Source: a phage. Taken from it: a stretch of 64,000 nucleotides of DNA. Below the pieces are notes generated by a model that saw nothing but the letters and a program-made list of their open reading frames with translations, was not told where the DNA came from and did not search any database. The position numbers and the translations under genes are program-made. Positions 14,334 through 50,087 of this stretch are shown piece by piece (position 1 is the first letter of the stretch; the number at the start of each line of letters is the position of its first letter). The DNA is taken from the sequence record PV636258.1; one strand, 5' to 3'.

Positions 14334-17075
14334 ATGAAAATGCGCAAGTCCGAGCATTTCGTGCGCTCTTCTTCTACCATCGTCGGACAGACATTCAATG
14401 TCAAGATGACGGATAAATTATTTGAAACATTATTTTCAAGTCTCTACAAATATAAAGAGGCGGCGTCTTTGCGTGAGACGTTGTGTAATGGTATAGACTC
14501 GCATAATATGCGTGATCGCCAACAACGCTGGATGCCATCGCATTATGCTCCTCTCACTCCTATGCCTCAACGATACAGCAAACATCTTGCCCCCAAGGGA
14601 ACTCCTGTTGTTGTACATTTACCGGATGTTATGGAACCCTGGCTGGAAATTAAAGATTATGGGGTTGGTCTTCCATTAGAAATGATCATCGGCGAGCCTA
14701 TTACAGCGCGTGAAGATGAAGTGCTGGTTGAAGGTAATATCGTCGTGAAGGAAGACGAAATCCCTGATAGCACTGCTGTTATTGGTACACCTGGTTATTA
14801 TAATGGGGTACTGGTATTCCGCGCTGAGGATGGCGAGATCATTCGTGGACCTGGTTTGTATACAACACTCTTCCATAGTACAAAAGAGGACGACGACGGG
14901 CAAATAGGGGCGTTTGGGCTAGGTTCTAAATCCCCATTTGCGGTATCTGATTCATTTACAGTAGAAAGTCGCTATGAGGGGAAACTGTATCGCTTCCTGA
15001 TGTATCTGAATGCGGACAGAATCCCAACTGTGGATCTCATTACCAAGGATTTAGATACCCGTGATCCTAAACCGGAAGACACTGATGAGTTCAACGGCCT
15101 GACTGTTAAAGTTCCTGTAAAGAATCAGCGTTTTACCGCCTTTGAACAAGAGTTGGTCCGTTTGGGTCGAGTGATGCGACCTTCAATGCGACCGAAGGTT
15201 GAAAACGCCAGTTATTCTTTCCGTTGGTCTGACATCAACTTCGAAAACCGTGTAGGCAACACATATATCCAACCGAAGTCAGATTCCGACAACATCCACT
15301 ATGCTGTCATGGGCGGGGTTTCTTACCCGATAGATCTCGACCAATTGGACTCTGAAATATGCACCGTGCTGGAAAAATTCCCGAGTTCCTATACCTTCTT
15401 CGAACTTGGAGAACTGAATGTACCGCCGTCACGCGAAGACTTGTCATACGACGAATTCACTCGTGAAAGCCTGAACCGCGTGTTCAAGCATGTGGCCGAA
15501 AATATCATGCAAGCGAAGATGTATGAACTTCGCCAAGCGGAGTCAATGGGTCCTCTTATGTTGTATATGAAAAAGACTCAGCTGACTGATATGTTCGGTA
15601 GTGGTTTCCGTAAATTGGTCGAACGGGAATTTCCTGCAGATAACCGTTTCTACAAAGGCACGTTCCGTTATATCGGAGCGCCGGACGTCGTGCGCGATTA
15701 CTCTTTGGATGCACCTTTCCGGTCTATTGGTAGTCCTTACGAAATTGAAGTACACGACAACGGTGTAGTACACGACAGCATTTATGTGAACTCTGTCGGA
15801 AATTGGTTGAAATCTAAATCAAAAATTGCTGTTATTATTGATAACTCGAATCGTGCTCGAAACCTGAAGATACAAACAGCACGCAATAACTTCAATGTCG
15901 TTATCGTCGTCAAACCGAATGAAAATTATTTCAGTAATCGGAATCAGCTTGCGGCACATAAAGAATCATTTACCAACCATGAGGAATTGAAGTCTTATTT
16001 TGAATCATGGATCGGTGTACAAGAAACAACGCCGGACTACCTGGTCTTTGCCGATAAACTGATCGAGGTCTTTGGCGATTTATTCAATCCGGATGAAGTC
16101 TATTTCATGCATGAAATGGAATATGTTCGCCCGACCGTTGAAAAAGATCCTGGGATGTTTAGTTTCTATTACAATTCATTTAACTTCGACAGCGTTTATG
16201 AATTAGATGGAAAAACCGTTTCAGATATTATTGATTCGGGCAAAAAGATCGTATATATCGAAGTATCTGGCCGAGAAGGTATCCATAAAATTCATGGTAA
16301 TACCTTACGACAATCCACGGCTGGACATTTGCGTGAAGCGATGGAAAGAACGAAGTTCGGCGAGAATGGAAACGAAAACCTGTTTGATTTGCTGGGAGCA
16401 CATCCAACAATCGTTCTTGCGCGTCGTAAATCTGTTCCGATGATGAAGAAATTCCCAGAAGTATTCATCCCCATTGACGCAGTGTTTGATATGTTGCTTG
16501 AGCATTATAAAGATGAATTTCAGGCGCTTGAATCTAAGAAACTCCTGAAACTTCGCAAGGGTATAAACATCATGTCTCATCGCATTGATTATGGTGCCAA
16601 GCTGTTGATTGATTCCCATGGAAAAGTTACGGATGGCTATGCCCATCATCAACACAGGGCAAAAGCAATCATCAGTTATGCGAAACAACAAATCACTGAA
16701 GAAGAATGGAAGATTGTTCGTATGCTGGCCAAACGAAATCCGTCTGGATCGGGGTACGGTTATTTCCGCAAGGCTGTTGAGGAATTACATTATCGTATAG
16801 AAATGCCTTTCCCAACTACGAGATTTTTCCGCGCCTGTAACCAGTTAACTCAAGTTGTTGATTTATTGAATGAAAAATTAACTGCTGAAGGATTTGATGA
16901 GATAAATGTCACTAGCACTATATCTCAAAAGCAAAAGGCCAAAAACCGATACCGAGTTGAATGTCATCGTTTGGTGAAGTTCATGATGTCAAAATATCAG
17001 CCTTCGGCACACAACGCGATTGAAGATGCCACTAGATTTGTGAAGGCTATTTCAAAACGTATTCTCGGGGCATAA
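14334..17075 (+). CDS. rIIA: rIIA-like protein (GHKL-type ATPase domain)
   Basis: 913 aa; N-box-like ETLCNGIDSH, G1-like IKDYGVGLP and G2-like GAFGLGSKS; followed immediately by rIIB-like gene as in T4-like phages. Confidence 0.7.
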   Translation: MKMRKSEHFVRSSSTIVGQTFNVKMTDKLFETLFSSLYKYKEAASLRETLCNGIDSHNMRDRQQRWMPSHYAPLTPMPQRYSKHLAPKGTPVVVHLPDVMEPWLEIKDYGVGLPLEMIIGEPITAREDEVLVEGNIVVKEDEIPDSTAVIGTPGYYNGVLVFRAEDGEIIRGPGLYTTLFHSTKEDDDGQIGAFGLGSKSPFAVSDSFTVESRYEGKLYRFLMYLNADRIPTVDLITKDLDTRDPKPEDTDEFNGLTVKVPVKNQRFTAFEQELVRLGRVMRPSMRPKVENASYSFRWSDINFENRVGNTYIQPKSDSDNIHYAVMGGVSYPIDLDQLDSEICTVLEKFPSSYTFFELGELNVPPSREDLSYDEFTRESLNRVFKHVAENIMQAKMYELRQAESMGPLMLYMKKTQLTDMFGSGFRKLVEREFPADNRFYKGTFRYIGAPDVVRDYSLDAPFRSIGSPYEIEVHDNGVVHDSIYVNSVGNWLKSKSKIAVIIDNSNRARNLKIQTARNNFNVVIVVKPNENYFSNRNQLAAHKESFTNHEELKSYFESWIGVQETTPDYLVFADKLIEVFGDLFNPDEVYFMHEMEYVRPTVEKDPGMFSFYYNSFNFDSVYELDGKTVSDIIDSGKKIVYIEVSGREGIHKIHGNTLRQSTAGHLREAMERTKFGENGNENLFDLLGAHPTIVLARRKSVPMMKKFPEVFIPIDAVFDMLLEHYKDEFQALESKKLLKLRKGINIMSHRIDYGAKLLIDSHGKVTDGYAHHQHRAKAIISYAKQQITEEEWKIVRMLAKRNPSGSGYGYFRKAVEELHYRIEMPFPTTRFFRACNQLTQVVDLLNEKLTAEGFDEINVTSTISQKQKAKNRYRVECHRLVKFMMSKYQPSAHNAIEDATRFVKAISKRILGA

Positions 17076-17107
17076 TAGCCCCATTACCCCACAGTGAGAA
17101 CTACAAG

Positions 17108-18691
17108 ATGAATGCTATAGAAAAACGTATTCTCAAGCTGTTGAATGAGAACAGAAGTCAAAGTTCAATAGCCAGTGAATTGGGCGTACCGCGCTCAATG
17201 ATACAACGCGTGTCGGATAAAGAACTGGGAGTGGATCCAGCTTCGATTAAGTCTCTGACTACTGAACAGATTCAAGAAATACAAACCAAGAGCAGCAAAG
17301 GTGAAAGCAATTCTTCTCTGGCATCAGTTTATGGCGTCAGTGCCAAAACAATTGCCCGCGCCCTGATGGTTCGTATCATCAAAGAATCTAATAACGTGGT
17401 CGTGATTTCGCCAATTAAAGAATTGACTGAAGAAGGGAAAATCCCCGACACCTATGAAGTTCTGGAAGGTTCGGTGTCTGTCGATTCTGAAGGCGAAGAA
17501 TGGTATGTTGGCCGTTTCCTGGAAAACCAAACAGTGTTTATCTGTATGCGTTACGATAGCTCTGCTGCTATTCAGGCCAAACTTTTCAGAAGCGAAGAAC
17601 TGAAACCGTTAGAAACTCGGTCAAGCCGCTTCAATGAAGAAAACATTTCTCCGTTGGCCGAATTGGCGACAGCACTGGTTGATGGCGTTACCAAAGTCAA
17701 TGACGGCGTGGTAATCAGTGTACAACATGACGGCGAAACATACCCGATGCGCGGTTCCCTTGATGCCCGTCGGCGTGTGGGATACTTTGACGCAATTCTG
17801 GGGCGTACACTTCGACTGGCGTTGTCGTCTGTTGTTTTCTCGGTTAAGACAACGGCTGTTGAGGAAGAGTCTGGCGACAAACAAACTCAGAATTCATTTA
17901 ACGAAAAAGATCTGTCGGTGTTCTTGAATGAGCACCAGATCATGATTTTACCGGAAAGCATCGTTATCGTTATGGATGGCAAACCGGAAACGATAACCAC
18001 AAGCCATCAGGCGTATGATCGTATTGTTGAAGCGATTAAAAATCGTGACGTCAAAACAGCGTACACTCTGATGAAACCGCGTGAAGCCATCAGCAAATTC
18101 ACTACAGGCATGGTTGATTTATCTGACAACCGTGTGCGCTGGGGTGGCTATGACATCACGGGAACTTCCGTCGCCAAACGCGTTTTGGCACTGGCATTAA
18201 AAGGCGATTATCCAAACTTAGAACGCTTGGGTCGTTTTCTGGACAAAATGTTTCAAAACCCGAGCGCCGCGCTGGTTCAGTCCGGTCGAATCTATGAATT
18301 CATGGCATATTCGGATATCGAAATTCATGAAGACGGTGATATCATCCTGTATAAATCCGTTCGCGGTAACTACATGGACAAGCGCACAGGAAAAGTTAGT
18401 AATGCTCCTGGGACCATTGTTCGGATGGCTCGCTCATTCGTGAACGATAACAACAAAGATCTGTGCTCTTACGGTCTTCACGTTTGTTCTCTGGCTTATC
18501 TGAAACAATGTTTTGGTAGCCTGGGACAACGCGTTGTCCGTTGCAAACTGAACCCGAAAGATATCGTGTCTATCACTGATGATTATGGCTCCAGTAAAAT
18601 CCGCTGCTGTGAATATCTGGTATTAGACGATTACACCACGGAATACAACCGCCAACATAAATCCATTGATGTTGAAGGTCTATACAAGTAA
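17108..18691 (+). CDS. rIIB: rIIB-like protein
   Basis: 527-aa ORF directly downstream of rIIA-like gene; assignment by position and size only. Confidence 0.5.
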   Translation: MNAIEKRILKLLNENRSQSSIASELGVPRSMIQRVSDKELGVDPASIKSLTTEQIQEIQTKSSKGESNSSLASVYGVSAKTIARALMVRIIKESNNVVVISPIKELTEEGKIPDTYEVLEGSVSVDSEGEEWYVGRFLENQTVFICMRYDSSAAIQAKLFRSEELKPLETRSSRFNEENISPLAELATALVDGVTKVNDGVVISVQHDGETYPMRGSLDARRRVGYFDAILGRTLRLALSSVVFSVKTTAVEEESGDKQTQNSFNEKDLSVFLNEHQIMILPESIVIVMDGKPETITTSHQAYDRIVEAIKNRDVKTAYTLMKPREAISKFTTGMVDLSDNRVRWGGYDITGTSVAKRVLALALKGDYPNLERLGRFLDKMFQNPSAALVQSGRIYEFMAYSDIEIHEDGDIILYKSVRGNYMDKRTGKVSNAPGTIVRMARSFVNDNNKDLCSYGLHVCSLAYLKQCFGSLGQRVVRCKLNPKDIVSITDDYGSSKIRCCEYLVLDDYTTEYNRQHKSIDVEGLYK

Positions 18692-18706
18692 GTGTAAATG
18701 GATATA

Positions 18707-18732
18707 AAAGGGAGGCTTCGGCCTCCTTTTCT
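18707..18732 (+). terminator. intrinsic terminator
   Basis: GGAGGCTTCGGCCTCC stem then TTTTCTTT. Confidence 0.6.
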
Positions 18733-18743
18733 TTGAGGTGAAT

Positions 18744-19043
18744 ATGGAAACTAGAGATGTTTACTTCGTGTATGAACAACAAGCATTTGGTTCATTACGC
18801 CGGAAAACAAAATTCCTTGTTGATTCATTCCAATTTGAAGGAGAACTCAAGGAATACTCGTTCAGGAATTTTCCTCCGAGAGAAGTCATAGGCGACCAGT
18901 TCGTGAAATTATTTTGTCGTTGTGGCGGCTGTGACTTTAACGACGACGGATATTCCATGCATGTTTATTGCTGCAATTGTTGTGGTAAATATATTACAGT
19001 CTATAGGAGAACTGATCATGGCGAAGACACAAAAGAAAATTGA
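18744..19043 (+). CDS. Cys-rich small protein (putative zinc-binding)
   Basis: ATG 18744 after GAGGTG; CRCGGCDF and CCNCCGKY clusters. Confidence 0.4.
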   Translation: METRDVYFVYEQQAFGSLRRKTKFLVDSFQFEGELKEYSFRNFPPREVIGDQFVKLFCRCGGCDFNDDGYSMHVYCCNCCGKYITVYRRTDHGEDTKEN

Positions 19044-19431
19044 AAACACTCAAACCATTCAAGAAATCACTGCACAGGAAGAAAATAAACTTCCCAGTTA
19101 TCTGCAACGCGTGGTGGATAACGTGCCTCAGGGCGGCGACGGCGGTATTGTCTACGCTGGTGACTACGGTTGGGTGTGTGAATATAAAGACGGCTCTAAG
19201 GAGCTTCTAGAGGAACTCACCGGACTTGCCGGAACTTTGCGCCGTTATGGGTTAGATAAATTCGGTAAACCTATGAAACCAGGTACTGTGGTATCAACCG
19301 ATATTACAGTTGAAGTTCTTCTTTTGCTTGATATCAATGATCTTAAAACGCTTGCGGAACCCCTGGGTATCGACGCGACTGACCGTAATGAAATAATCTC
19401 GCAATTGACTGAAAAACTGCAGATTAAATAA
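19018..19431 (+). CDS. hypothetical protein
   Basis: ATG 19018 after AGGAGA; overlaps upstream gene end. Confidence 0.4.
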   Translation: MAKTQKKIENTQTIQEITAQEENKLPSYLQRVVDNVPQGGDGGIVYAGDYGWVCEYKDGSKELLEELTGLAGTLRRYGLDKFGKPMKPGTVVSTDITVEVLLLLDINDLKTLAEPLGIDATDRNEIISQLTEKLQIK

Positions 19432-19463
19432 TCCCAGTGTATAACTGCTGATTATAATTCAAT

Positions 19464-24771: not shown

Positions 24772-26103
24772 ATGGTTGCTAAAAGTATTACCGTAACAGA
24801 ATTTATCAACGGGGATCATAAAGAGTTTTCCGTGGTTAACAGCATCCGTCAAATCCCTCAGCTGATTGACAGCCTGAAGCCAAGCCAGCGCAAGATACTC
24901 TTTGCTGCTCTTGAATACAACAAGGAGGAGATTGTTGACCGCCTTGGCATGTTCGCCGCCGCTCGCACGAATTACAAATCCGGTGGTGAGAACATGAGCG
25001 GTACGATCGTGAACATGGCTCAGGGGTTCCCAGGTACGAATAACATCCCATACTTTGACCGCGACGGACAGTTTGGTTCAATCATGGGGCGCGAAGCGTC
25101 TTCCGCTCGTTATATTTCAGTGGCAGTGTCTGAAGTTATCCGTAAAATCTTCCGAAAGGAGGACGATGGGATATTGGAATACAATTATCTTGGGGAAGAG
25201 AAACTGGAGCCGAAATTCTTTTTACCCATCCTGCCCATGTTTCTCGTGAATGGTATAAATGGTATCGGCTCGGGTTATGCCACCGACACCCCATGTCACT
25301 GCGTTAAGTCCGTGCTCAGTGCCCTGAGAGCACTTCTCCGTGGCGAAGACCCGAAGGACTTAAAACCGTACTGGAATGGTTTCAAAGGAGAGACAGGCTA
25401 TACTGAGGAAGGAAGAGCATACAGTCGTGGTTTGTTCACCCGCGTCAATGCAACCACTCTGAACATCACCGAGGTTCCTATTGGTTGGTTCTCTAAAACC
25501 TATGAGACCAAAGTGTTGTTGCCGTTGTACAAATCCGGCATACTCACTGAATATGCTAACGATACGACCGAAGATGGTTGGGATATCACTGTTGTATTCA
25601 AGCGGGGTGAATTGTCTAAGTTGGATGACGAACAGGTTGAACAGATGTTCCGTCTTTACTCAGCTAATAAGCCCGTGTGGACAGCTTGGGATGAAGATGG
25701 TGTTATTCACCGTTACGATGGTTGGAAAGACATGTTGCTTCCATTTTTCAATTATCGCCTGAGTCGCTATGAAGATAGACGTCAGTATCTTATCAAGGAA
25801 TTGACCGACAAAATACACCGTTTGAACAATCGTGCCATATTCATTGGGTGGGCTGTCATTACAGATATGCGCCGGAGCCTCACGGAACTGAAAGCGTTAT
25901 TCCAGACAGACTATCCTGATTTTGATGGCGATCTCGATGATTTATTCAAGATGTCTTTATCATCAATTACACTAGATGCCCATGAACGTTTGTTGAACCA
26001 GATAAAGAATTTAGAAGTTCAACGAGAAGAATTAAATAATAAGCAAGACATCGATCTTTATACTGAAGATTTAGATGATCTTGAAAAGGCATTGGGCCTA
26101 TAA
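24772..26103 (+). CDS. 52: DNA topoisomerase II medium subunit (GyrA-like, gp52)
   Basis: ATG 24772 2 nt after upstream stop; GyrA-like N-terminus with PSQRKILFAALE; active-site Tyr region present. Confidence 0.85.
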   Translation: MVAKSITVTEFINGDHKEFSVVNSIRQIPQLIDSLKPSQRKILFAALEYNKEEIVDRLGMFAAARTNYKSGGENMSGTIVNMAQGFPGTNNIPYFDRDGQFGSIMGREASSARYISVAVSEVIRKIFRKEDDGILEYNYLGEEKLEPKFFLPILPMFLVNGINGIGSGYATDTPCHCVKSVLSALRALLRGEDPKDLKPYWNGFKGETGYTEEGRAYSRGLFTRVNATTLNITEVPIGWFSKTYETKVLLPLYKSGILTEYANDTTEDGWDITVVFKRGELSKLDDEQVEQMFRLYSANKPVWTAWDEDGVIHRYDGWKDMLLPFFNYRLSRYEDRRQYLIKELTDKIHRLNNRAIFIGWAVITDMRRSLTELKALFQTDYPDFDGDLDDLFKMSLSSITLDAHERLLNQIKNLEVQREELNNKQDIDLYTEDLDDLEKALGL

Positions 26104-26146
26104 ATCTGGAGGGTGAAATTCCCTCCAAACAAGCGAGGGGTTCACC

Positions 26147-26425
26147 ATGTTTGTATATTTCCGCAGTCTCTCATTGCTGGCTTTCTTCTATTGGTTGTTC
26201 GATATCTTATGCCCTCGTTTTATTAAAGAGGAAGTTGCTTTTGTCAATCATGAAGGCCAACAAGATTTATGGATACCTCTTTGCGCTCTTTCTGATGTAA
26301 CCGAATCGGATGAAGTGGGTATGGTTGGCACCATGCGTTCATTTAATTTATTTGGATTCGCATTATTCCCTAAGTTAATTGGAGAATTACGCCCATACAA
26401 TCCTGATATAGAAGTGGAGGCGTGA
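26147..26425 (+). CDS. hypothetical protein
   Basis: 92-aa ORF with hydrophobic N-terminus. Confidence 0.35.
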   Translation: MFVYFRSLSLLAFFYWLFDILCPRFIKEEVAFVNHEGQQDLWIPLCALSDVTESDEVGMVGTMRSFNLFGFALFPKLIGELRPYNPDIEVEA

Positions 26426-26426
26426 T

Positions 26427-26738
26427 ATGTCAAAATTATTGACTCCAAAATTATTATCAATGGGTGGTTCCATATATTTTCATTGTCCTGGATGTAATAT
26501 GCTTCATCCTTATCGCATTTCAGGGCAAATGCCTGGCCCAATATGGCAATGGAATCACGATCTCGAATCACCGACTTTCACTCCTAGTCTGTTGGTGAAT
26601 CATTCTGATCCAAATAACCGTTGCCATTTATTTTTGACAGATGGTAAATTACAATTCCTCGGAGATTGTTTCCACGAATTAAAGAATCAAACCGTGGAGA
26701 TGGTCGATATTCCTGAACCTGAAATATGGATAGATTAG
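26427..26738 (+). CDS. hypothetical Cys/His-motif protein
   Basis: HCPGCNMLHPY ... RCHLF ... GDCFHEL motifs suggest metal binding. Confidence 0.4.
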   Translation: MSKLLTPKLLSMGGSIYFHCPGCNMLHPYRISGQMPGPIWQWNHDLESPTFTPSLLVNHSDPNNRCHLFLTDGKLQFLGDCFHELKNQTVEMVDIPEPEIWID

Positions 26739-26741
26739 ATT

Positions 26742-27155
26742 ATGAAATTACTTGGATATTTTCGTTCTTTGCCTACTGGATCTCCTAATGGGTGTCAATT
26801 ATACTCTGAAGTGAAAGGGGACGTGGACGACACTCACATCGCCTTGTATGCTCGTGATATACCTGACCCAACCAAGTTTGATCGGCGTGTTGTGGCTGCT
26901 GCCAACAAATATGGTGATGTGATCGTTGTAAGCGCCCGACATCACGACAAATTGATGAACACGCAACTCAAACGATTGAAGGAAGCAGGTATTATCGAAA
27001 CCACCCACACTCGTGAACAAGGGTTTATTGATAACTATGGGCAATGGATGTCCCGTGAAGAGGCCGCTGTGGTCGCCCGTGAAGCCGGACAAACTAATCA
27101 GGTCCGTTTGAAGAACACTCCTTTCAAAGAACTCTTTTCCGAAGACCTCTATTGA
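26742..27155 (+). CDS. hypothetical protein
   Basis: 137-aa ORF. Confidence 0.4.
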   Translation: MKLLGYFRSLPTGSPNGCQLYSEVKGDVDDTHIALYARDIPDPTKFDRRVVAAANKYGDVIVVSARHHDKLMNTQLKRLKEAGIIETTHTREQGFIDNYGQWMSREEAAVVAREAGQTNQVRLKNTPFKELFSEDLY

Positions 27156-27204
27156 ATAAATTGGCGGTATAATTGCCGCCTAACCCCATAATGAGACAAA
27201 TAAC

Positions 27205-27429
27205 ATGGCAAATGAAATTGGTGATATTGCCCAGTTCCGTGCTATTTCACGCCGCCTGAAATCGTATGGACTCGTTATCGAAGAAATAGATGAAGACGTT
27301 CAGGGTGTATTGGAAGGGATGTTTGGGAGTACCGTTGGAACGGAATTATTTGAACTTTTAAAGATGGCAGCTGATAACCAATTTGTTGAATATATTTCTG
27401 AACACGCTATTGATGGTCTGAATAAATGA
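27205..27429 (+). CDS. hypothetical protein
   Basis: 74-aa acidic ORF. Confidence 0.35.
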   Translation: MANEIGDIAQFRAISRRLKSYGLVIEEIDEDVQGVLEGMFGSTVGTELFELLKMAADNQFVEYISEHAIDGLNK

Positions 27430-27662
27430 ACGAGTTATATGAATTTGAACGCGTGTATGAGTCCGCTTCAGTTTCAGGATACATGAAACGATTATATCAA
27501 GAAATCTGTGTTCGTTTGATGATGCGAGGAATATCTGTCAATTGTGTTATGGCACAGACAGACAGTTTTATTATGACACTCACTGACCATCGCCAGAATA
27601 TGTGTATCATCCAGGTTAGCTGTGTCAACAACGAAATTATACAATGGAGACGTTACGCATGA
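27426..27662 (+). CDS. hypothetical protein
   Basis: 78-aa ORF. Confidence 0.35.
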   Translation: MNELYEFERVYESASVSGYMKRLYQEICVRLMMRGISVNCVMAQTDSFIMTLTDHRQNMCIIQVSCVNNEIIQWRRYA

Positions 27663-28264
27663 CCACATATGTTATCACAAACGGCGATTTACTGAAAGCC
27701 GCTACGAGTTTTAATCTCATCAATGCTTTCGCTCATGGCGCAAATTGTTGGTCTGTGATGGGCGCAGGTATCGCCAACCATGTTCGATTGGATTTCCCAG
27801 AAATTTACCGCGCCGACCAATTAGATGAACGTGGTCCGGAACAACGTTTGGGGAACATGTCCTATGCGTTTGATCATGACACTGGTGTCTGGGGATTCAA
27901 TTTGTATACTCAGTTCTACCCTGGTCCTAACGCACGCATGCCTTCCATTATCAGTTCAGTTCAGATTATGTTTGAACAAGTTCACGATATCATTGAGGCA
28001 AAAACTGACGAAACAGTCTATGTCGGTTTACCCGCCATCGGCTGTGGTATCGGTGGTTTGAAACTGTTTCATGTAGTGAGCCAGATTAATAAAATCGCGG
28101 ATACTATCTTCGAAGATACCAGGCGTCGTGTAGTACCCGTCTTTTATATCCGACAGGGTGACGGGTTTGAACAAGATTTACAAGAACTTTCCCAGATGGT
28201 GGACTACGGAATCTCTGTCGTCGCTAGTGAAGAAGATATCATCGAAGAGGAAGGTATTGGATGA
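27659..28264 (+). CDS. macro domain protein (ADP-ribose binding/hydrolase-like)
   Basis: ATG 27659 after GGAGA; NAFAHGANCWSVMGAGIANHV resembles macro-domain NAAN...GGGV...AI motif. Confidence 0.5.
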   Translation: MTTYVITNGDLLKAATSFNLINAFAHGANCWSVMGAGIANHVRLDFPEIYRADQLDERGPEQRLGNMSYAFDHDTGVWGFNLYTQFYPGPNARMPSIISSVQIMFEQVHDIIEAKTDETVYVGLPAIGCGIGGLKLFHVVSQINKIADTIFEDTRRRVVPVFYIRQGDGFEQDLQELSQMVDYGISVVASEEDIIEEEGIG

Positions 28265-28605
28265 AGCGTGAAATAACAGAAGAGATGCTCGCCAAAGCCG
28301 TTCTTCATCCCAAGGTGCGTTTTGCATTTATCCCTACACGTTTACACGATGGAAATTGGGTATGGCTGGAGCATTATGTTCGCGCTCCTATCGGCCTATA
28401 TGCCCAACTCCGTTATGGCGGCGAAGTCGAGTTAAAACAATATCGCGTCGGCGGGGGATTAGGCGGGTTGGATGACGGGGAATATTTCCCACATCGCAAT
28501 TTCGCCATGAACGATAATTCATATTTCAAAGTCGAGTATGCCGCCGCTTGTGGGACATATCCTTTGAAACTCCTTTTAGAGAAAGCAGGGGAAACTGATG
28601 TATAA
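28261..28605 (+). CDS. hypothetical protein
   Basis: 114-aa ORF, start overlaps upstream stop. Confidence 0.4.
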   Translation: MKREITEEMLAKAVLHPKVRFAFIPTRLHDGNWVWLEHYVRAPIGLYAQLRYGGEVELKQYRVGGGLGGLDDGEYFPHRNFAMNDNSYFKVEYAAACGTYPLKLLLEKAGETDV

Positions 28606-29230
28606 ATCTAATTTCTTGGCCGTCGCTGATAGCGAAACTCTCGGTCGTTGGGATGATGCTGTCATGTTGTCTTGGGCACAGACTATCGCCGACCTGACTA
28701 AGCGTTATACTCTTCAGCAGCTTGTTGAAGAGCGCACGACATTTATTAAACTGAATGTCAAAGAACAGATTGAACTTGGCCGTGTGAAAGACCAGGGCAC
28801 TGTGGAATGGTGGCTGGGTACAGGTAAACGCAACCCGTGCGACGCCGCCCGAGCTATCAGTCTATATCCGACCGACAAGGATATTTCTATTTTCGAATTG
28901 GCCGATGAAATTCGCAAGGGATGCCATCGCCTTGGGATCGACCCGCGCTCGGTTGACTGGTGTGATAGGAATCTGTTTGACCTCCGCAAGGCCCAGCACA
29001 TCATTGAGGTGACGTGTAAGCAAGATTCCAACGAACCTTGGGACTATCACCACACATTTGACATCGTAAGCTGGCTGAAGGGTGTTGGGCAGCAGGATCG
29101 ATATGCTGGTATCAAGGCGTGGGAACTGGAAGGCATGATCTATCATGACCCTCGTTATGATGCGGCGCTTGACTGGCTACGCATTCAGAAAACCATGGAA
29201 GACCTGATGGGGCTGAAGGTAGAAGGATGA
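28598..29230 (+). CDS. DEDDh-type 3'-5' exonuclease (DexA/oligoribonuclease-like)
   Basis: Exo I FLAVADSETLG (DxE) near N-terminus and Exo III YHDPRYDAALD (H-x4-D). Confidence 0.55.
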   Translation: MYKSNFLAVADSETLGRWDDAVMLSWAQTIADLTKRYTLQQLVEERTTFIKLNVKEQIELGRVKDQGTVEWWLGTGKRNPCDAARAISLYPTDKDISIFELADEIRKGCHRLGIDPRSVDWCDRNLFDLRKAQHIIEVTCKQDSNEPWDYHHTFDIVSWLKGVGQQDRYAGIKAWELEGMIYHDPRYDAALDWLRIQKTMEDLMGLKVEG

Positions 29231-29307
29231 ATCTTTCCTTGTTTTCATGGTTGTTTACAATCATAGTTTTCTTCATAGTCTGTGTTCAATATTTTGGAGG
29301 TTCTTAA

Positions 29308-29598
29308 ATGTTCTTTCAAATTGTCGGGGTGATCACGACCATTGTTTTTGTTGTCATAACGCTTTGGATATTGTATTCTTCATTTATCCATCCGATTTTT
29401 CAGGCTCTCAGTATTACACGTTGGCTCACAGCGTGTTCTTTGAAATCTGGAAGCGAATGTCCTTCTTTATCGTCCAAATGGAAATTCTTCAAATGGGCGT
29501 ATGAAGTCGGAGGAGTCCGAACAACCAGATATTCAAATAATGTAGGGGAATGGTTTAGCATCGGCAATTGGCGTTTGTACGAATCTGAAGACAAATAA
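29308..29598 (+). CDS. small membrane protein
   Basis: 96-aa ORF, hydrophobic N-terminal half. Confidence 0.4.
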   Translation: MFFQIVGVITTIVFVVITLWILYSSFIHPIFQALSITRWLTACSLKSGSECPSLSSKWKFFKWAYEVGGVRTTRYSNNVGEWFSIGNWRLYESEDK

Positions 29599-29629
29599 GC
29601 CCCGAAAGGGGCTTTTCTATTTGTATAAT
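29597..29629 (+). promoter_or_regulatory. terminator hairpin followed by extended -10 (TGTATAAT)
   Basis: AAGCCCCGAAAGGGGCTTTTCT hairpin 29597-29616, then TGTATAAT at 29622-29629 upstream of gene at 29671. Confidence 0.5.
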
Positions 29630-29670
29630 GTATTATCATTGTACCATCATATCTTTATGGCACACAACAA

Positions 29671-29967
29671 ATGAAAGAGCAAGAAATTATCCGGCATTGT
29701 ATTCGCTTAGGAACATTAAAACCTCTCTATCAGGCTTTGCGTTTCAATGCCATTAAATTCAAACCTTTACCAAGAACTATCGCAACGTTCTTTGCCATGC
29801 GTTCTGTTGGAAAAACGATTTTCTTTGAGCATGACATTTATTTTTATACAAAGATTAATGGCGAAGATTTAGATAAAATGATTTTCGTGAACGACGATAA
29901 AAATATGAAGATAAAGGTGGAAAACGAATTGCGCAGGATAAATGATTCTTTAAGAGGAATATTTTAA
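29671..29967 (+). CDS. hypothetical protein
   Basis: 98-aa ORF; stop overlaps start of PP-loop gene (TAATG). Confidence 0.4.
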   Translation: MKEQEIIRHCIRLGTLKPLYQALRFNAIKFKPLPRTIATFFAMRSVGKTIFFEHDIYFYTKINGEDLDKMIFVNDDKNMKIKVENELRRINDSLRGIF

Positions 29968-30629
29968 TGGAAATTGTTGTCTCAATATCTGATTGTGATT
30001 TTGTATACCGTGTTCTTCAAGGGGATGCTCCATTGCCGGAGAATAATCAAGAAGTGACGTTGTTCTGGTCTGGTGGGGTGGATAGCACATACATGTTGAT
30101 TTGGTTGTTATCGAAAGGATATTCAGTTCATACTGTGTATTGCCACCTCGAAAATAATAAATTTAAATCTAAGCGCGAAAATTGGGCGAGGAATAAAATA
30201 TACAACTGGATTAATAAAAATGCCCCACTTCTCATGTATCGTTGGACACATCATCAAGAGCCTATCAGTAGCATCAACGTCCCGAACGGTGGTTTTCGCG
30301 CTTGTTTAGCACAAGCCCCGATATGGTTATTAAACACGCAATTTAAAGGCAGTGGCTTGCCGTCCACGTATATCTTGGCATATGTTAACGGCGATGACGC
30401 AATACACTGGATACCCGCCTTTAATAAAGTTATTGAAGGATACAACATGATGACCAGAGACGGGGAAAGACCTATTGAAATTTTATATCCATTGATTAGT
30501 CTCAAGAAATCTTGGTTCTATCATCACATGTCCCCAATACATGACTTAATGACATGGTGTGAATTGCCAATTTTGAAAAAGAATTGTGATTGCCCTGCCT
30601 GTGTTCGACATCGCCATGAGTTATCATAG
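29967..30629 (+). CDS. PP-loop ATP pyrophosphatase, QueC-like
   Basis: SGGVDST PP-loop signature; C-terminal Cys cluster CELPILKKNCDCPAC with QueC-like spacing; about 220 aa like QueC. Confidence 0.6.
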   Translation: MEIVVSISDCDFVYRVLQGDAPLPENNQEVTLFWSGGVDSTYMLIWLLSKGYSVHTVYCHLENNKFKSKRENWARNKIYNWINKNAPLLMYRWTHHQEPISSINVPNGGFRACLAQAPIWLLNTQFKGSGLPSTYILAYVNGDDAIHWIPAFNKVIEGYNMMTRDGERPIEILYPLISLKKSWFYHHMSPIHDLMTWCELPILKKNCDCPACVRHRHELS

Positions 30630-30631
30630 AG

Positions 30632-30973
30632 ATGAAATGTTCGGTTGTTGTAAATGACATCACGAGATTGATAAATCTTATCAAAGACGTCTTCCCACAA
30701 CAGGTGGATGTTGAGTATGTTGGGAAGAACGGAAAGTGCTATCAGGTTGCTCTGGTTCTGAAGCACGTGTATCCTCAAGCAGAGATCCATTATAGCCAGA
30801 TTGAAGGTCATGTGTATACTCTGATTGATGGACATTACTACGACATCGACGGCATCCACTTCAGTGTCCCACCAGACACGTGTTTGCTCGAACATAATAG
30901 AGGTCACAAACCGCATCGTTGGCATAAAGGGTTTGTGAACGTACCGATTTTAGAATGGCTGAGGAAACCATAA
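30632..30973 (+). CDS. hypothetical His-rich protein
   Basis: 113-aa ORF; stop overlaps next start. Confidence 0.4.
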
Positions 30974-31533
30974 TGGCGGGAATTGTAAAGCACCTTGGTG
31001 ACACTCATCTTGGGCATAAGAAGGTCTTTAAACCGCGTGGATTTGATACACAGGAAGCCCATGACGCTGCGGTCATTGACAGTATCTTTCAGGGGTTGAA
31101 GTCTCGGGACGTTCTTGAACTGGCTGGTGATATATGCTTCATCGGGGCTGAAGGGTTCATTCGCCTGATGCGGGAGGGTGCCAAGCGAAACATTGATGAG
31201 TTTAAGCGACGCCCCGTTCCCGATGACTGGCGTCCGAACTTTATCATCAAGGTGGCACAAGGCAACCATGACAGCTTTAAGATGTTGTTGTCTCTGTATC
31301 TGGACGGCTGGATTAGCTCCTTCGGCGCTATGTACGAACGTGACACGCCTGTTGGCTGTGTGTTGACAACACATGTTCCTTATCAATTAGACCGTTGGGC
31401 GTATAATATCCATGGTCATCTTCACGAAAATATTCGAGAAGAGCGCGAATACCTGAACTGCAGTTGGGAACAATTCAAGCGTCCTGTAACCCTGGCTGAG
31501 TTGTTATACACAAATTTAGGAATTGTATTATGA
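30973..31533 (+). CDS. calcineurin-like metallophosphoesterase
   Basis: ATG 30973 after GAGGAA; GDTHLG (motif I), GNHD (motif III), IHGHLH (motif V). Confidence 0.6.
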
Positions 31534-31862
31534 AAATATTCTTTCCTGGTCAGAAAGTACCCGAAGAAATAGAAAAGGTCGAGTTATTTGGTTATAAAAG
31601 CGGTGATCCGTTCCTGCGATTTTCTTCACCATGTATTGTGAAGCGTAATCATGAAGGGCATTATGTGCGCCCAATCATCCTCATGGGTTCTGTCATGACG
31701 CTGAGAGCTAAAACGGATTCGGTTGTTATTACTGGAAGTCCCAACATACCCAATGGGAAGACTACGCTAAATTGCAAGCCTATCCTGTCGTCTTGGGCGT
31801 TAATTGGATTTCTGTCTATAATCTTGTTTTATCGTTACCTTACCGACTTGGGGATCTTATGA
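31530..31862 (+). CDS. hypothetical protein with C-terminal TM
   Basis: 110-aa ORF; C-terminal hydrophobic [13 protein letters not shown]. Confidence 0.4.
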
Positions 31863-32209
31863 AAAAGCCACGCATCACAGGACATCAACTCTGCGTCCTT
31901 TTAGGAATGTTGAATTTTGAAAAGGGTGAAGCCAGACGCCTTTGTCATTGGTATTTCAATCCCAAATCTTGGACGAACGATAAAGGGAAAACGGTTTGGA
32001 CTTTTCATGCGCCACCGATATCTGGCGGGTTTCGTTCTGTAAAGGGTGATCCATGGGATACGCGTTCAGGTCAATCCTTGTTGTCTAAAGGTCTGATCGA
32101 ACCTGCGTTTACAATGGTTCACGACAACTCTGAAGAGTATAAGCATTGGCCGAAGTCTGAAGTAACATTCTATAGGCTTACAGACCTCGGTAAAGCATGT
32201 ACTGAATAA
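31859..32209 (+). CDS. hypothetical protein
   Basis: ORF trimmed to ATG 31859 overlapping upstream stop. Confidence 0.4.
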   Translation: MKKPRITGHQLCVLLGMLNFEKGEARRLCHWYFNPKSWTNDKGKTVWTFHAPPISGGFRSVKGDPWDTRSGQSLLSKGLIEPAFTMVHDNSEEYKHWPKSEVTFYRLTDLGKACTE

Positions 32210-32227
32210 TATTTTAGGTTATTGAAG

Positions 32228-32252
32228 AAAGGGGAAGGTATACTTCCCCTTA
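32228..32252 (+). terminator. terminator-like hairpin (TTGAAGAAA + GGGGAAG-GTATA-CTTCCCC)
   Basis: GC stem with AT loop, member of recurrent element family; weak T-run. Confidence 0.4.
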
Positions 32253-32272
32253 ATTTATTGGGAGAGACAAAC

Positions 32273-32590
32273 ATGATTTCATTAAAAGAAATGTACGAAC
32301 GCCTCGAAGAACTGAAATCTAAAGAACGTCTGTATTCAGAAGAGAATGCAGAAATGTCAGATCTTATCGAAAAAATTGCGTTGCGTGAAAAGTATCTTCA
32401 ACGTTATATCAATCATCCACCTCATATGGTTGAGCGCATGTCTACAATTCTCGAATTGGACAGCAGCGGTGTAACAGGCAAAGACCTGATTGTCAAAGAG
32501 GTTCATTCCATGGTGTCACTCGGTCAGATCTTTGGCCGCGCCGACCAGGATGACATGATCTTTTTACTTGAAAAGGCTCTGGTAAAATAA
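32273..32590 (+). CDS. hypothetical protein
   Basis: ATG 32273 (MISLKEMYERL). Confidence 0.4.
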   Translation: MISLKEMYERLEELKSKERLYSEENAEMSDLIEKIALREKYLQRYINHPPHMVERMSTILELDSSGVTGKDLIVKEVHSMVSLGQIFGRADQDDMIFLLEKALVK

Positions 32591-33111
32591 TGGCTATCAA
32601 ACCACGAATGATGTTCGCCCATATGCGATCAGCTGCAGCATATGGTGTAACCAGTTATGCTCGGCGTCTGCAAGTCGGTTGTGTTATCGTAAACCCTGAA
32701 ACTGATCAGCCTGTGGCTATCGGATGGAACGGAACGCCTCCTGGCATGCCGAATGTTTGTGAGATGGAACAACACGGGCAAATTGTTACAAACCCGCGTG
32801 TCATTCATGCGGAGGAAAATGCTCTAATGCGTATCCCCGAAAATGCAGATGATTTCACAGGGTTGGTTATGTTTGTGACACATAGCCCATGCCCTGATTG
32901 CACTCAGAAGATCATCGACAACGGCAAGATCGATAAAGTATATTATCAAGAGCCATATCGTATCATGGATGGAATCAAAATATTGATGAACTCCGGAATT
33001 GAAGTTTACCGGATGGTGGGCGATATGGCAATCCTTAAACACGTTTTCGACGATCAAGGCGAAGTCGGATACGAACAAATCTTATCCAACCCAGACAAAG
33101 TAAGGAATTAA
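32590..33111 (+). CDS. cd: dCMP deaminase
   Basis: Zinc-dependent cytidine/dCMP deaminase motifs HAEENAL and SPCPDC. Confidence 0.8.
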   Translation: MAIKPRMMFAHMRSAAAYGVTSYARRLQVGCVIVNPETDQPVAIGWNGTPPGMPNVCEMEQHGQIVTNPRVIHAEENALMRIPENADDFTGLVMFVTHSPCPDCTQKIIDNGKIDKVYYQEPYRIMDGIKILMNSGIEVYRMVGDMAILKHVFDDQGEVGYEQILSNPDKVRN

Positions 33112-33112
33112 A

Positions 33113-33520
33113 ATGCGTTATGTAGACCGCATGCTCGGCGAAAATGAACATGTCATCGCTTTCACCCGCCCGACTTGGTGGAGCGGTTTTTGGATTTATG
33201 TTCTGGTTATTTTAACGATTATCCCAACATTTGGATTCAGCTTGTTATTTCTGATACCAACAATTTTAAATGTGTTGACAACTGAATTCGCAGTCACCAA
33301 CAAGCGTGTTATTGTCAAACGGGGATTTATTCGTCGTGATGCTGATGAACTCCGTCTTGGTAAAGTAGAAACCATTAAGGTGGACCAGTCTATTACAGGC
33401 CGTATCTTGAAGTTTTCGACCATCAGTGTTATTGGTACGGGCGGTACTCGCCTGTTGGCTACAGGTTGTGCTAAAGGGAACGAATTCCGTCAAAAAATTT
33501 ATGATCATCTGGGTGACTAA
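33113..33520 (+). CDS. membrane-anchored protein with bacterial PH-like domain
   Basis: Two N-terminal TM segments then soluble beta-rich region; YdbT-like architecture. Confidence 0.4.
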   Translation: MRYVDRMLGENEHVIAFTRPTWWSGFWIYVLVILTIIPTFGFSLLFLIPTILNVLTTEFAVTNKRVIVKRGFIRRDADELRLGKVETIKVDQSITGRILKFSTISVIGTGGTRLLATGCAKGNEFRQKIYDHLGD

Positions 33521-33739
33521 ATGATTACTGCAGGATACACCGTCGATTTGTATTGTGAGTGTGTTGAATGCAAATCTTGTAATTGGGCTTGGGAAGAACA
33601 TCACCCCAGATGTGGGATGAAGTCTTATGCTGGTGAATCTTGGGGAGACTGTGCTAGACAAGCCCGTGCTGATGGGTGGATGATATGCAGGGACAAACAA
33701 ACTTGCTTTGCCCCTGGACATCCAAGGAAATCAGGGTAA
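33521..33739 (+). CDS. Cys-rich small protein
   Basis: CECVECKSC ... HPRCG ... C clusters. Confidence 0.35.
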   Translation: MITAGYTVDLYCECVECKSCNWAWEEHHPRCGMKSYAGESWGDCARQARADGWMICRDKQTCFAPGHPRKSG

Positions 33740-34351
33740 TAACAAACCATCATCTTCCGATTGCGTTGGTTGTTTATTAGCAGTTTCCTTCTTCATTTGC
33801 TCTTTCAACGCATTAATCCTTTGAGCGCGGCGTCGATCTTCCATTTCGACTTCGCGCTTTTTCTTAGAACGAAGAGCAAATTGTTTTTTAACTTCTGGGT
33901 CTTCACCTGGCACCAAATGTTCTTCTGTCCAGATAATGAATTTCCAACCCACCTTTGCACAATGTTCTTTAGTTGCTGTCCACTTTGCCTGATTTACCAA
34001 CCAAGTGCGCATTGAATTATTGAATGTTGATTCCTTCATCGTTTTAGTTTTGCGAGGTTCTTTAATCTGGTCTTTGGGTTTTATTTCAATAAGAGTAATT
34101 TGTAATTCATCGGAATCCTGCCGACGAGTCCAAACCTTCAAATCCATGAAATAACGATGGGCGCGGCCATCAACCGGAGATATGTAAGGGATTACACAAG
34201 TTTCCGAACCCCACTTCACGATAGCAGGATTCATGTCACAGAATTTGAATGCAACCAATTCTAAAGAGGAACGAAACACGATATCTTTTACGTCTCCGAC
34301 ATATTTTTGAGGATTTACGGGGACATACTTCCCCTGCAAATACATAGCCAT
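33731..34351 (-). CDS. hypothetical protein with PD-(D/E)xK-like motif
   Basis: 206 aa; YFMDLKV ... ITLIEIKPK resembles D-(x)n-ExK nuclease-fold motif; divergent from structural cluster. Confidence 0.4.
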   Translation of the reverse strand: MAMYLQGKYVPVNPQKYVGDVKDIVFRSSLELVAFKFCDMNPAIVKWGSETCVIPYISPVDGRAHRYFMDLKVWTRRQDSDELQITLIEIKPKDQIKEPRKTKTMKESTFNNSMRTWLVNQAKWTATKEHCAKVGWKFIIWTEEHLVPGEDPEVKKQFALRSKKKREVEMEDRRRAQRINALKEQMKKETANKQPTQSEDDGLLLP

Positions 34352-48481: not shown

Positions 48482-49047
48482 TTCCGATCCCTATAAAATT
48501 TGACGAACGGTTGCCAACCTTCAAACGGATTGACAAATTCATAATCAACTTCCATCTTATCAATGAAAGCCTCAATGTCATCCTCTATGATACCACCGCG
48601 ATCCGCCTTTGAAATGCGGGTGATGGGACATTTAGTGCTCAGCGCCCATTCATATTCCTGAGGGGTGCGCAAATCACTCACGATATAATGAACGTGTGGG
48701 TTCTGTTCCACCAAAGGAAGTTGATATCGTTTAAAGAATGACAGAAACAGGTCTGGTTGTACGTAACGCAAGCCCGTATCGCTGCCGAGATGAAGCCAGA
48801 TCTGCCGTGGAGTTAATCCCTTGGGGTTATCAGGGTGAACATATGGCAAGTCCTTGATGTCGTCCTCTACTTCCTCTGGCAACCAAGGATAGATGTAATG
48901 AGCCACCCGACGCAACTCGTCTGAGAAAGATAAGCGCTGGATGTCCATATCACCCTGTAAATGGTGAAAGCTGATGAGGGACTCCAAACAGAAGTCCTTG
49001 CCGGAGCGCTTGCGCCCCGTAAAGAATTCCAGATTAGGGTATTTCAT
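48478..49047 (-). CDS. 1: deoxynucleoside monophosphate kinase (gp1-like)
   Basis: P-loop FFTGRKRSGKDF resembles T4 gp1 FLSGVKRSGKDT; ATG at 49047 overlaps upstream stop (ATGA). Confidence 0.7.
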   Translation of the reverse strand: MKYPNLEFFTGRKRSGKDFCLESLISFHHLQGDMDIQRLSFSDELRRVAHYIYPWLPEEVEDDIKDLPYVHPDNPKGLTPRQIWLHLGSDTGLRYVQPDLFLSFFKRYQLPLVEQNPHVHYIVSDLRTPQEYEWALSTKCPITRISKADRGGIIEDDIEAFIDKMEVDYEFVNPFEGWQPFVKFYRDRK

Positions 49048-50087
49048 TCCCCATACCCCCACATGTGTTTACGGTCAACGGGTGATTGTAACAACGCATT
49101 ACGAAGACCATCATCAGCAATCCGACGTTTATCAATTTTAGTATCATTAAGGCGACACCACAGACAATATGACATATCCATCATCAAACCTGTATCTGCG
49201 TTATATTCCTTCAAATGCTCTCTGATTTTACCAAATTCACTGCCAATGTCACAGTGATGAAGTACACCGAGGAACAGATTTTGGATGTTTTCTTGACATT
49301 TCACCTTTTCCGAAGAGAATTCCAACAAAGAATTGTACATACCAGTAGAAGTTCGGGTCTTGTTGGTTATGTTCCCGAGTTGCTTCCGACTGACTTCGTT
49401 GTTGTAATAGTGAAGGTTATTCGAGAACAGTTTATAATTCCCGACTTCCACGTTCAACACCTTCGCCAATACTTCCTGCAAAATGGAGAATTCAATGAAG
49501 TTGATTGAACTCATACCCCAGAGGACATCCTGACTTCGATTGATGACCGTGATGTTCAACCGCCCTTCTGTTATACTGAACAATAAAGCCAGATTACAGA
49601 TCATGTCTTTAGTCTTGGCTTCTCCTGTTTCACTATGCGCGGCCAAACTTTCATCTGAGTCCAGAGCTGGATCATAGATGGTGAGATACGCCTGACGGGT
49701 GTTGGGGTTATTGCGCAAACGGTTGATGACACTATTCAGCTGGCCATAGTTGTACAGGCGTGGTCCGTAAGCACCACGCCACGTTACGCCATCATCCGAG
49801 AAGTTGACCGCACGAGGGAGGACTCGGGAAAGGAAACGGATGTCATTGCGGCCTGACAGAACCCAGAATGTTTCACCAATCGCAGCAAGCGCAGATGAAT
49901 TACGACCTTCAACAGATAACCAACGATCTCGAGGGTCAGCCACCGTAATCGTCACGCCATCAATAAAACGAGTGCCGTCAGTGTTAATCTCTGCGTTGCC
50001 AGGATCTGACTCAATCCCGTGTTCACGGATAGCCAACACAGCTTTCTTCAGCATATCATTATTGTTTAAAGCAAAAATCTCCATCAA
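49044..50087 (-). CDS. thymidylate synthase-family enzyme, divergent (candidate deoxypyrimidylate hydroxymethylase)
   Basis: TS-fold motif series: GAYGPRLYNYGQ, NNPNTRQAYLTIYDP, Cys in DMICNLALLF, NRSQDV, SSINF (Asn at uracil-specifying position), SNNLHYY; 347 aa with C-terminal extension. Confidence 0.8.
   Translation of the reverse strand: MMEIFALNNNDMLKKAVLAIREHGIESDPGNAEINTDGTRFIDGVTITVADPRDRWLSVEGRNSSALAAIGETFWVLSGRNDIRFLSRVLPRAVNFSDDGVTWRGAYGPRLYNYGQLNSVINRLRNNPNTRQAYLTIYDPALDSDESLAAHSETGEAKTKDMICNLALLFSITEGRLNITVINRSQDVLWGMSSINFIEFSILQEVLAKVLNVEVGNYKLFSNNLHYYNNEVSRKQLGNITNKTRTSTGMYNSLLEFSSEKVKCQENIQNLFLGVLHHCDIGSEFGKIREHLKEYNADTGLMMDMSYCLWCRLNDTKIDKRRIADDGLRNALLQSPVDRKHMWGYGE

Follow-up and report, generated by a model that had tools for sequence, protein, structure and literature searches.

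Within a stretch of 64,000 nucleotides of phage DNA (sequence record PV636258.1; the whole stretch is referred to as the window) lies a gene for a 220-residue PP-loop protein that, as judged from profile comparisons, belongs to a large branch of the QueC-like PP-loop ATP pyrophosphatases, strongly diverged and almost restricted to viruses, and that stands outside any 7-deazaguanine cassette. As to its function, we give about even chances to the reading, its negative claims included, that this is an accessory gene of the Kuttervirus early region whose product would act as a one-step ATP-dependent amide-forming ligase on a substrate other than 7-carboxy-7-deazaguanine (CDG). By sequence identity the phage is a Kuttervirus (ViI/CBA120-like) of the Ackermannviridae: region 29600-33800 of the window shares 99.7% identity with Salmonella phage Chennai and 98.7% with positions 15265-19453 of Escherichia phage CBA120, a Kuttervirus of the same family, and the window is circularly permuted relative to the CBA120 record (rIIA start at 14334).

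The gene is real and had been annotated previously; the RefSeq record of CBA120 labels it as "QueC-like queuosine biosynthesis", while other records use "alpha hydrolase" or "7-cyano-7-deazaguanine synthase". An odd QueC-like singleton had also been flagged in the literature, since Hutinet et al. (2019) noticed singleton QueC-like genes in the phages ECML-4 and Muddy and set them aside as another PP-loop subfamily, with no family definition, signature, distribution or genomic context given there (PMC6884629). A literature search for functional data turned up none, either for orf028 of Kuttervirus or for the viral family. ECML-4 we take to be a ViI-like phage, in which case its singleton, equated here by description, would presumably be the same gene. 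Recent work has demonstrated or suggested roles of QueC-like proteins other than queuosine synthesis, namely the modification of proteins in bacterial immunity (Cap9, QatC). The viral family adds a third, virus-side QueC-like branch with an invariant active-site signature of its own and no cellular home.

A diverged viral branch of QueC-like proteins

Membership in the PP-loop superfamily is given by the SGGVDS loop (residues 35-40), which follows the first strand and is kept in 19 close and 83 distant homologues, and by a Rossmann-like alpha/beta fold as found in solved members of the superfamily. The AlphaFold2 model (mean predicted local distance difference test score, pLDDT, 83.9) comprises a single domain of 220 residues with no additional nucleic-acid-binding domain, and its structural neighbours include GTP-bound YcfA, ThiI, TtuA, NcsA and TilS. 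The C-terminus reads W-C198-ELPILKKN-C207-D-C209-PA-C212; other key residues are N63, N64, E71, Q116, Y139, D143, W148, K181 and E199. A sequence-only reading of the window had described a 220-residue protein with SGGxDS and a C-x8-C-x-C-x2-C cluster at QueC-like spacing. These features are present at 29967-30629 and, in both HMMER and hhalign alignments, the four cysteines align with the zinc site of QueC, so this observation is confirmed.

Searched as a single sequence against the PDB, the protein returns matches with E>0.1 only, to argininosuccinate synthase and QueC. The family profile, by comparison, matches Bacillus subtilis QueC (3bl5) over its full length with E 2e-11 and Cap9 (PDB 9nto) with E 7e-9, and hhalign aligns it to Escherichia coli QueC with a probability of 95% and 21% identity across 180 columns. 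The PP-loop protein is therefore a genuine, very distant relative of QueC and Cap9. This distance is also apparent from the family models: Pfam QueC reaches 23.9 bits over residues 33-64 only, and with 18.4 bits the protein stays far under the 150.3-bit cut-off of the NCBIfam equivalog model of QueC (TIGR00364).

The profile was built from the 19 close homologues and searched against 1.84 billion representative sequences, which yielded 1,141 proteins with E<=1e-3, of which 475 reached E<=1e-10. At 50% identity the family falls into about 1,100 clusters, nearly all of them on viral or metagenomic contigs (the latter up to 358 kb), and almost all members are approximately 200-300 residues long and matched over their full length. 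The C-terminal extensions of longer members contain no Pfam domain, only low-complexity acidic tails. Among cultured phages, the family occurs in most genera of the Ackermannviridae and in some jumbo phages of Pseudomonas, Ralstonia, Burkholderia and Vibrio, and a scan of 185,579 reference genomes with one pattern found no relative. The alignment of 83 sequences shows G37, D39, S40, E71, Y139, D143, K181 and C198 to be invariant and N63, N64, Q116, A145, F174, P175, E199, C207, C209 and C212 to be nearly so. Pfam QueC touches 77 of the 83 members, weakly (best E 4e-12). The spacing of the cysteines is x8/x2/x2 in the wider family and x8/x1/x2 in Kuttervirus. The one member seen on a bacterial chromosome (L088 10001-10687; OW818669, 4.2 Mb) has an N-terminal extension of 35 residues, is a lone gene flanked by transposases of the insertion sequence types IS3 and IS21 and is adjoined by WD40, TPR and CHASE2 proteins; its setting is uninformative for function.

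With QueC the viral proteins share the SGGxDS loop, a length of about 220 residues, the single Rossmann-like domain and the C-terminal four-cysteine zinc site, as well as a conserved glutamate after strand 2, an aromatic residue at the position of the YPDC tyrosine and a lysine at the position of K165. The canonical QueC signature was defined in a 2026 study as YxQxHxxE, VPxRN, YPDC and Y189, and E. coli QueC function is abolished by the exchanges Y35A, R99A, Y131A and Y189A (PMC13329287). According to a structural study, the tyrosine and the aspartate of YPDC stack on and read the deazaguanine base (PMC13279940). The elements YxQxH, VPxRN, YPDC and Y189 are not kept in the viral family. In the alignments QueC Y35 is replaced by L61, no conserved residue takes the place of R99 (A115/Q116), the aspartate D133 of YPDC corresponds to P150, a position that varies across the family, and Y189 corresponds to E199. 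The YPDC tyrosine stays aromatic (W148 here, tyrosine in most of the family), and E71 (probably QueC E42), K181 (K165) and the zinc cysteines are retained. A further difference is the zinc-site spacing, which is C-x8-C-x-C-x2-C in the Kuttervirus protein and C-x8-C-x2-C-x2-C in QueC. As the family is a branch almost exclusive to viruses whose substrate pocket has changed, the PP-loop protein probably does not make the QueC product.

The genomic setting also differs from that of QueC, as the viral gene, with its virus-only distribution, is not linked to queD, queE, folE or tgt. A tblastn search with E. coli QueD, QueE, FolE, Tgt and QueA, at the sensitivity of BLAST, gave no match better than E 0.7 (best E >= 0.76) for either the window or the complete genome of CBA120, and the RefSeq annotation of CBA120 lists no deazaguanine-partner product, DpdA or other tRNA-guanine transglycosylase (TGT) included. 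The earlier suggestion that the window holds no complete deazaguanine cassette thus stands and extends to the whole genome of CBA120. An Rfam search near the gene detected neither a preQ1 riboswitch nor any other family, even at E<=1.

Databases routinely label members of the viral family as "7-cyano-7-deazaguanine synthase" or "queuosine biosynthesis". Recognizing them as something other than QueC sets right the annotation in over 160 genomes of Kuttervirus and in several jumbo phages, and it prevents the false inference of deazaguanine DNA in these phages.

Proposed amide-forming activity and a protein-conjugating alternative

In the mechanism that we favour, ATP and Mg would be bound at the SGGVDS loop, and the carboxylate, or possibly the carbonyl oxygen, of a planar substrate other than CDG would be adenylated while the substrate is stacked on W148. 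Attack by an amine would then give an amide in a single step, as in Cap9 and unlike in QueC, which makes a nitrile in two steps. The acceptor might be the amino group of a protein or peptide, which is our favoured guess, or in second place the amine of a small molecule or nucleotide. Some points weigh against this proposal. For every member of the family we infer the substrate, the nucleophile and the catalytic activity itself. The equation of E71 with QueC E42 is not certain, because the gap after strand 2 falls at different places in the HMMER and hhalign alignments. Moreover, the replaced canonical residues may not strictly exclude a deazaguanine substrate; QatC is likewise devoid of the canonical residues, yet some authors propose that QatB is deazaguanylated.

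A more specific alternative, possible and in our view doubtful, is that the protein is a viral conjugating enzyme of the Cap9/QatC type, which would ligate an activated acyl group or nucleobase carboxylate to the N-terminal amine of a partner protein, either regulating phage replication proteins or subverting the QueC-based immunity of the host (QatABCD and type IV cyclic oligonucleotide-based antiphage signaling systems, CBASS). Cap9 of type IV CBASS is also a minimal single domain and has, like the viral proteins, a "CE" pair at the first zinc cysteine, and its single-step amide-forming chemistry is plausible for the viral enzyme. Cap9, however, retains the canonical residues for CDG binding (Y/FxQ(x)5E, RN, H(x)4YxDC) that the viral family has lost: in the profile alignment to 9nto_B, the "tpyy" loop of Cap9 with Y115 is an insertion absent from the viral family, and the RN pair is lost as well. 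Furthermore, the gene belongs to phages and not to a defence island, and neither a CD-NTase nor Cap10 lies beside it in the window or in 79 viral loci. QatC of the QatABCD system resembles the viral protein in being a QueC-like protein with a remodelled substrate pocket. It differs in its length of about 400 residues with N- and C-terminal extensions and in motifs of its own, and the phage encodes no QatA, QatB or QatD; the family profile matches QatC (9vlk) with E 0.97 only. PADLOC reports a generic QueC model only, over residues 26-82, which is the PP-loop region.

As partner in such a conjugation, a protein of 120 residues can be considered, which is encoded directly upstream of the PP-loop gene, between genes for an SNF2 helicase and PolB, in a large uncultured viral lineage (loci L027, L035, L053-L055, L072 and others, e.g., L055 4514-4876). 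Its gene overlaps the start of the PP-loop gene or ends a few nucleotides away, and it has no Pfam or PHROG match. The N-terminus, M-[G/A]-x-x-Y-x-W-G-x-N-P, ranks with its best-conserved segments and has glycine or alanine at position 2 in 24 of 26 copies compared with 12% of the other proteins of the same loci; a conserved SALWLSG motif is also present. The conserved Met-Gly/Ala start recalls the glycine at the N-terminus of QatB and CdnD, which enters the active site of QatC or Cap9 and is modified, and makes this protein a candidate substrate or partner of the PP-loop enzyme. Since the 26 copies are homologues, the N-terminal pattern amounts to one evolutionary observation, which limits its weight for the conjugating enzyme. 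A hidden Markov model (HMM) of the protein detects no homologue in Kuttervirus, phiMAM1, phiEa2809, PA1C or YC (best E 0.11), and none of the neighbours of the PP-loop gene in the window begins with Met-Gly. A conserved small upstream partner was considered for the family at large and rejected: overlapping upstream open reading frames (ORFs) exist in most lineages, but they are mutually unrelated in sequence. If the viral enzyme did conjugate proteins or counteract defence, QueC-ligase chemistry would be extended to phages, among them tractable ones (CBA120, ViI, Det7).

Genomic context and nucleic-acid-directed alternatives

Unlikely, in our judgement, is a nucleotide- or DNA-level modification step that the PP-loop protein would perform jointly with the metallophosphoesterase and the dCMP deaminase encoded downstream of it. 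PP-loop enzymes can act on nucleotide bases, as GMP synthase does, and GTP-bound YcfA is found among the structural matches. The phosphoesterase gene, moreover, keeps its place 1-2 genes downstream in genomes of Kuttervirus and of Agtrevirus-like and Taipeivirus-like phages. This neighbourhood is lost outside close relatives. We clustered 1,270 ORFs from 83 loci and found that the genes for the YunG-like protein, the phosphoesterase, the DUF7618 protein and the dCMP deaminase never accompany the PP-loop gene outside the Ackermannviridae. Already within this family the phosphoesterase is confined to Kuttervirus and its nearest genera, with phiMAM1 and phiEa2809 lacking it, and in PA1C, Vibrio phage YC and all uncultured lineages none of the window neighbours lies beside the PP-loop gene. 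Conversely, Limestonevirus (LIMEstone1, L084 13123-14184) keeps the deaminase and the membrane protein with the bacterial PH domain, while the PP-loop block is gone. The LIMEstone1 gap spans the stretch from the topoisomerase genes to the gene before the dCMP deaminase and, compared with window positions ~26100-32270, comprises the genes for the Tk.4-like protein, the DexA-like exonuclease, the PP-loop protein, the YunG-like protein, the phosphoesterase and the DUF7618 protein. Several homing endonuclease genes are located near this LIMEstone1 locus. The array is variable even within Kuttervirus, because many of its members, the PM10-type phages, carry an extra gene for a 149-residue protein between the YunG-like and phosphoesterase genes (L096 1674-2123; window ~30973). 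This extra gene, which Chennai, CBA120 and the window do not have, may match the label "phosphoheptose isomerase" in some records. The adjacency of the PP-loop gene to the phosphoesterase and dCMP deaminase genes reflects no pathway but lineage-specific synteny within an array of variable gene content.

Known DNA hypermodification does not call for the gene either. Part of the thymidine in ViI-like phages is replaced by 5-(2-aminoethoxy)methyl-2'-deoxyuridine (5-NeOmdU), as reviewed (PMC11721090), and this modification was rebuilt in lysates from ViI gp67, gp160, gp226, gp243 and gp247 (PMC5889632). Two of the five genes lie in the window at a distance of 20 kb from the PP-loop gene, which itself is outside the set of five that sufficed in vitro and is on this basis not needed for 5-NeOmdU (PMC5889632). 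A DNA-level role of the PP-loop gene is weakened by this reconstitution from other genes. The dCMP deaminase probably supplies dUMP to the hydroxymethyl-dUMP route, as judged from the established pathway to 5-hydroxymethyl-2'-deoxyuridine (5-hmdU). Apart from this pathway, the family is present in phages such as the phiKZ-like PA1C. To our knowledge, such phages are not known to modify their own DNA. The proteins are furthermore not basic (family median isoelectric point 6.7) and have no extra nucleic-acid-binding domain. The charge was dropped as a way of judging nucleic-acid binding, a median of this value being not informative.

A further point for action on nucleotides or DNA is the location near replication and recombination genes: of 30 sequence groups (45% identity), 14 have such genes no more than 6 kb from the PP-loop gene, a count that has no baseline rate for large-phage genes lying near replication genes. 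In several lineages the PP-loop gene is flanked directly by genes for SNF2 helicase, PolB, DnaB, UvsX/UvsY or topoisomerase II, and the recurrent orders are SNF2 helicase, 120-residue protein, PP-loop, PolB, ..., Nudix; RecA/UvsX-like, flap endonuclease (FEN), DnaB-like, PP-loop; gp32-like, UvsX, UvsY-like, PP-loop, SNF2; and PP-loop followed by topoisomerase II. In the window, topoisomerase II and the DexA-like exonuclease are encoded upstream of the PP-loop gene, at a distance of 1-7 kb. The association with replication genes is suggestive and not universal.

Four jumbo-phage contigs (L089-L092) were inspected for a shared partner, which was rejected given their heterogeneous contexts (RNA ligase, PARP, NADAR, Thg1, ThyA, DHFR, DNA ligase). 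A gene for a small DUF4326 protein occurs in three of the four, 0.5-5.5 kb from the PP-loop gene (L089 11917-12189, L090 2426-2719, L091 7254-7580), and genes for NADAR, PARP/WGR and RNA ligase lie near the DUF4326 and PP-loop genes in jumbo-phage contigs.

That the protein modifies phage or host tRNAs, by thiolation, a lysidine-like reaction or similar, appears quite improbable. Such a role could be expected from ThiI, TtuA, NcsA and TilS among the structural neighbours, from some jumbo-phage contexts with Thg1, PTH2, RNA ligase or a tRNA-synthetase-like gene and from the tRNA genes of CBA120, which encode tRNA-Met(CAU), tRNA-Asn(GUU), tRNA-Ile(GAU) and tRNA-Ser(GCU) (L086 47354-48709; CBA120 136807-138162). 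The window has no tRNA gene. HMM classification, proposed in the sequence-only reading for this purpose, places the protein outside the tRNA-modifying clades, as the NCBIfam models for MnmA, ThiI and the N-terminal domain of TilS score 16.1, 14.6 and 13.3 bits against cut-offs of 284, 264.5 and 93.6, respectively. The single domain lacks a THUMP domain, the TilS C-terminal domain or any other extra RNA-binding, Fe-S or catalytic-cysteine module, and its cysteine cluster aligns with the zinc site of QueC, not with the cysteines of Fe-S thiolases. tRNA-Asn belongs to the queuosine-modified set, and nothing ties the tRNA-Asn of CBA120 to the QueC-like gene.

Genuine QueC activity, by which CDG made by the host (the E. 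coli pathway is established, and queD and queE were seen) would be converted to preQ0 or 7-amido-7-deazaguanine (ADG) during infection, would fit the automatic annotation and the full-length homology to QueC, but it is very improbable given the replacement of the QueC-essential Y35, R99 and Y189 and of the YPDC aspartate, the score far below the equivalog cut-off, the assignment of such singletons to another subfamily by Hutinet et al., a phage without DpdA or TGT to use the product and a host with a QueC of its own.

Organization of the gene array in the window

The PP-loop gene is part of a co-directional array that extends to position 33739, with genes that overlap or are separated by a few nucleotides (Table 1); the sole exception is a gap of 63 nt (32210-32272). 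The TAA stop codon of the preceding 98-residue ORF and the ATG of the PP-loop gene share one base (TAATG), and the YunG-like ORF begins 2 nt past the PP-loop stop codon. The coupling to small ORFs that had been read from the sequence is thus borne out, whereas their description as orphans is not, as they represent conserved phage families (PF24591, PF24594, PF03703 and PHROGs 9302, 4677, 4059 and 926).

Table 1. Features in and around the PP-loop gene array and genes related to thymidine hypermodification, with positions in the window.
Feature	Position	Strand	Remarks
5-hmdU DNA kinase 2 (HMUD2)	6735-7640	+	PF18747, E 2e-149
Amino acid:DNA transferase	8182-9423	+	PF18724
Terminator-like GC hairpin with U-tract	29597-29614	+	free energy (dG) -16.6 kcal/mol, z -4.5, 0/200 shuffles as good
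TATAAT	29624-29629	+	3' of hairpin 29597-29614; putative promoter
98-aa ORF	29671-29967	+	phrog_9302; Kuttervirus only
PP-loop gene (CBA120 orf028/gp024)	29967-30629	+	220-aa diverged QueC-like PP-loop ATP pyrophosphatase; phrog_1550
113-aa YunG-like phage protein	30632-30973	+	PF24591, phrog_4814
Calcineurin-type metallophosphoesterase	30973-31533	+	phrog_547, E 1e-42; start per CBA120 annotation
110-aa DUF7618 protein	31530-31862	+	PF24594, phrog_6872
116-aa protein, last gene of first block	31859-32209	+	phrog_4677
Intergenic hairpin	32229-32251	+	dG -17.1 kcal/mol, z -2.8; in the 63-nt gap
105-aa protein, first gene of second block	32273-32590	+	phrog_4059
dCMP deaminase (zinc deaminase, HAE...PCxxC)	32590-33111	+	PF00383, E 1e-17; phrog_174, E 8e-64
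135-aa membrane protein with bacterial PH domain	33113-33520	+	PF03703 (bPH_2), phrog_3707
72-aa Cys-rich ORF, end of array	33521-33739	+	phrog_926, E 2e-26
Divergent thymidylate-synthase homologue	49044-50087	-	may be dUMP hydroxymethylase

Upstream of the array, the first hairpin and the TATAAT element (29597-29629) likely mark a transcription-unit boundary just 5' of the 98-residue ORF, which would close the preceding gene and open the PP-loop block. This hairpin (AAGCCCCGAAAGGGGCTT) looks bidirectional, with T-tracts flanking both sides. The second hairpin, which stands between the PP-loop and deaminase blocks, might terminate transcription or serve as a processing site, a function that can only be proposed because its U-tract is weak. 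With the first block bracketed by the two hairpins and the deaminase encoded in the second, the array probably does not form a single operon. A metallophosphoesterase and a dCMP deaminase do follow the PP-loop gene, as the sequence-only reading had it; the functional operon suggested for them does not hold, given the synteny in close relatives only and the hairpin between the blocks.

The metallophosphoesterase, whose longest ORF begins at 30955, shows the motifs GDTHLGH, GDICF, GNHD and GHLH in its translation and has no Pfam match. The 72-residue ORF at the end of the array is without annotation in the RefSeq record of CBA120 and converges on a head completion gene on the minus strand.

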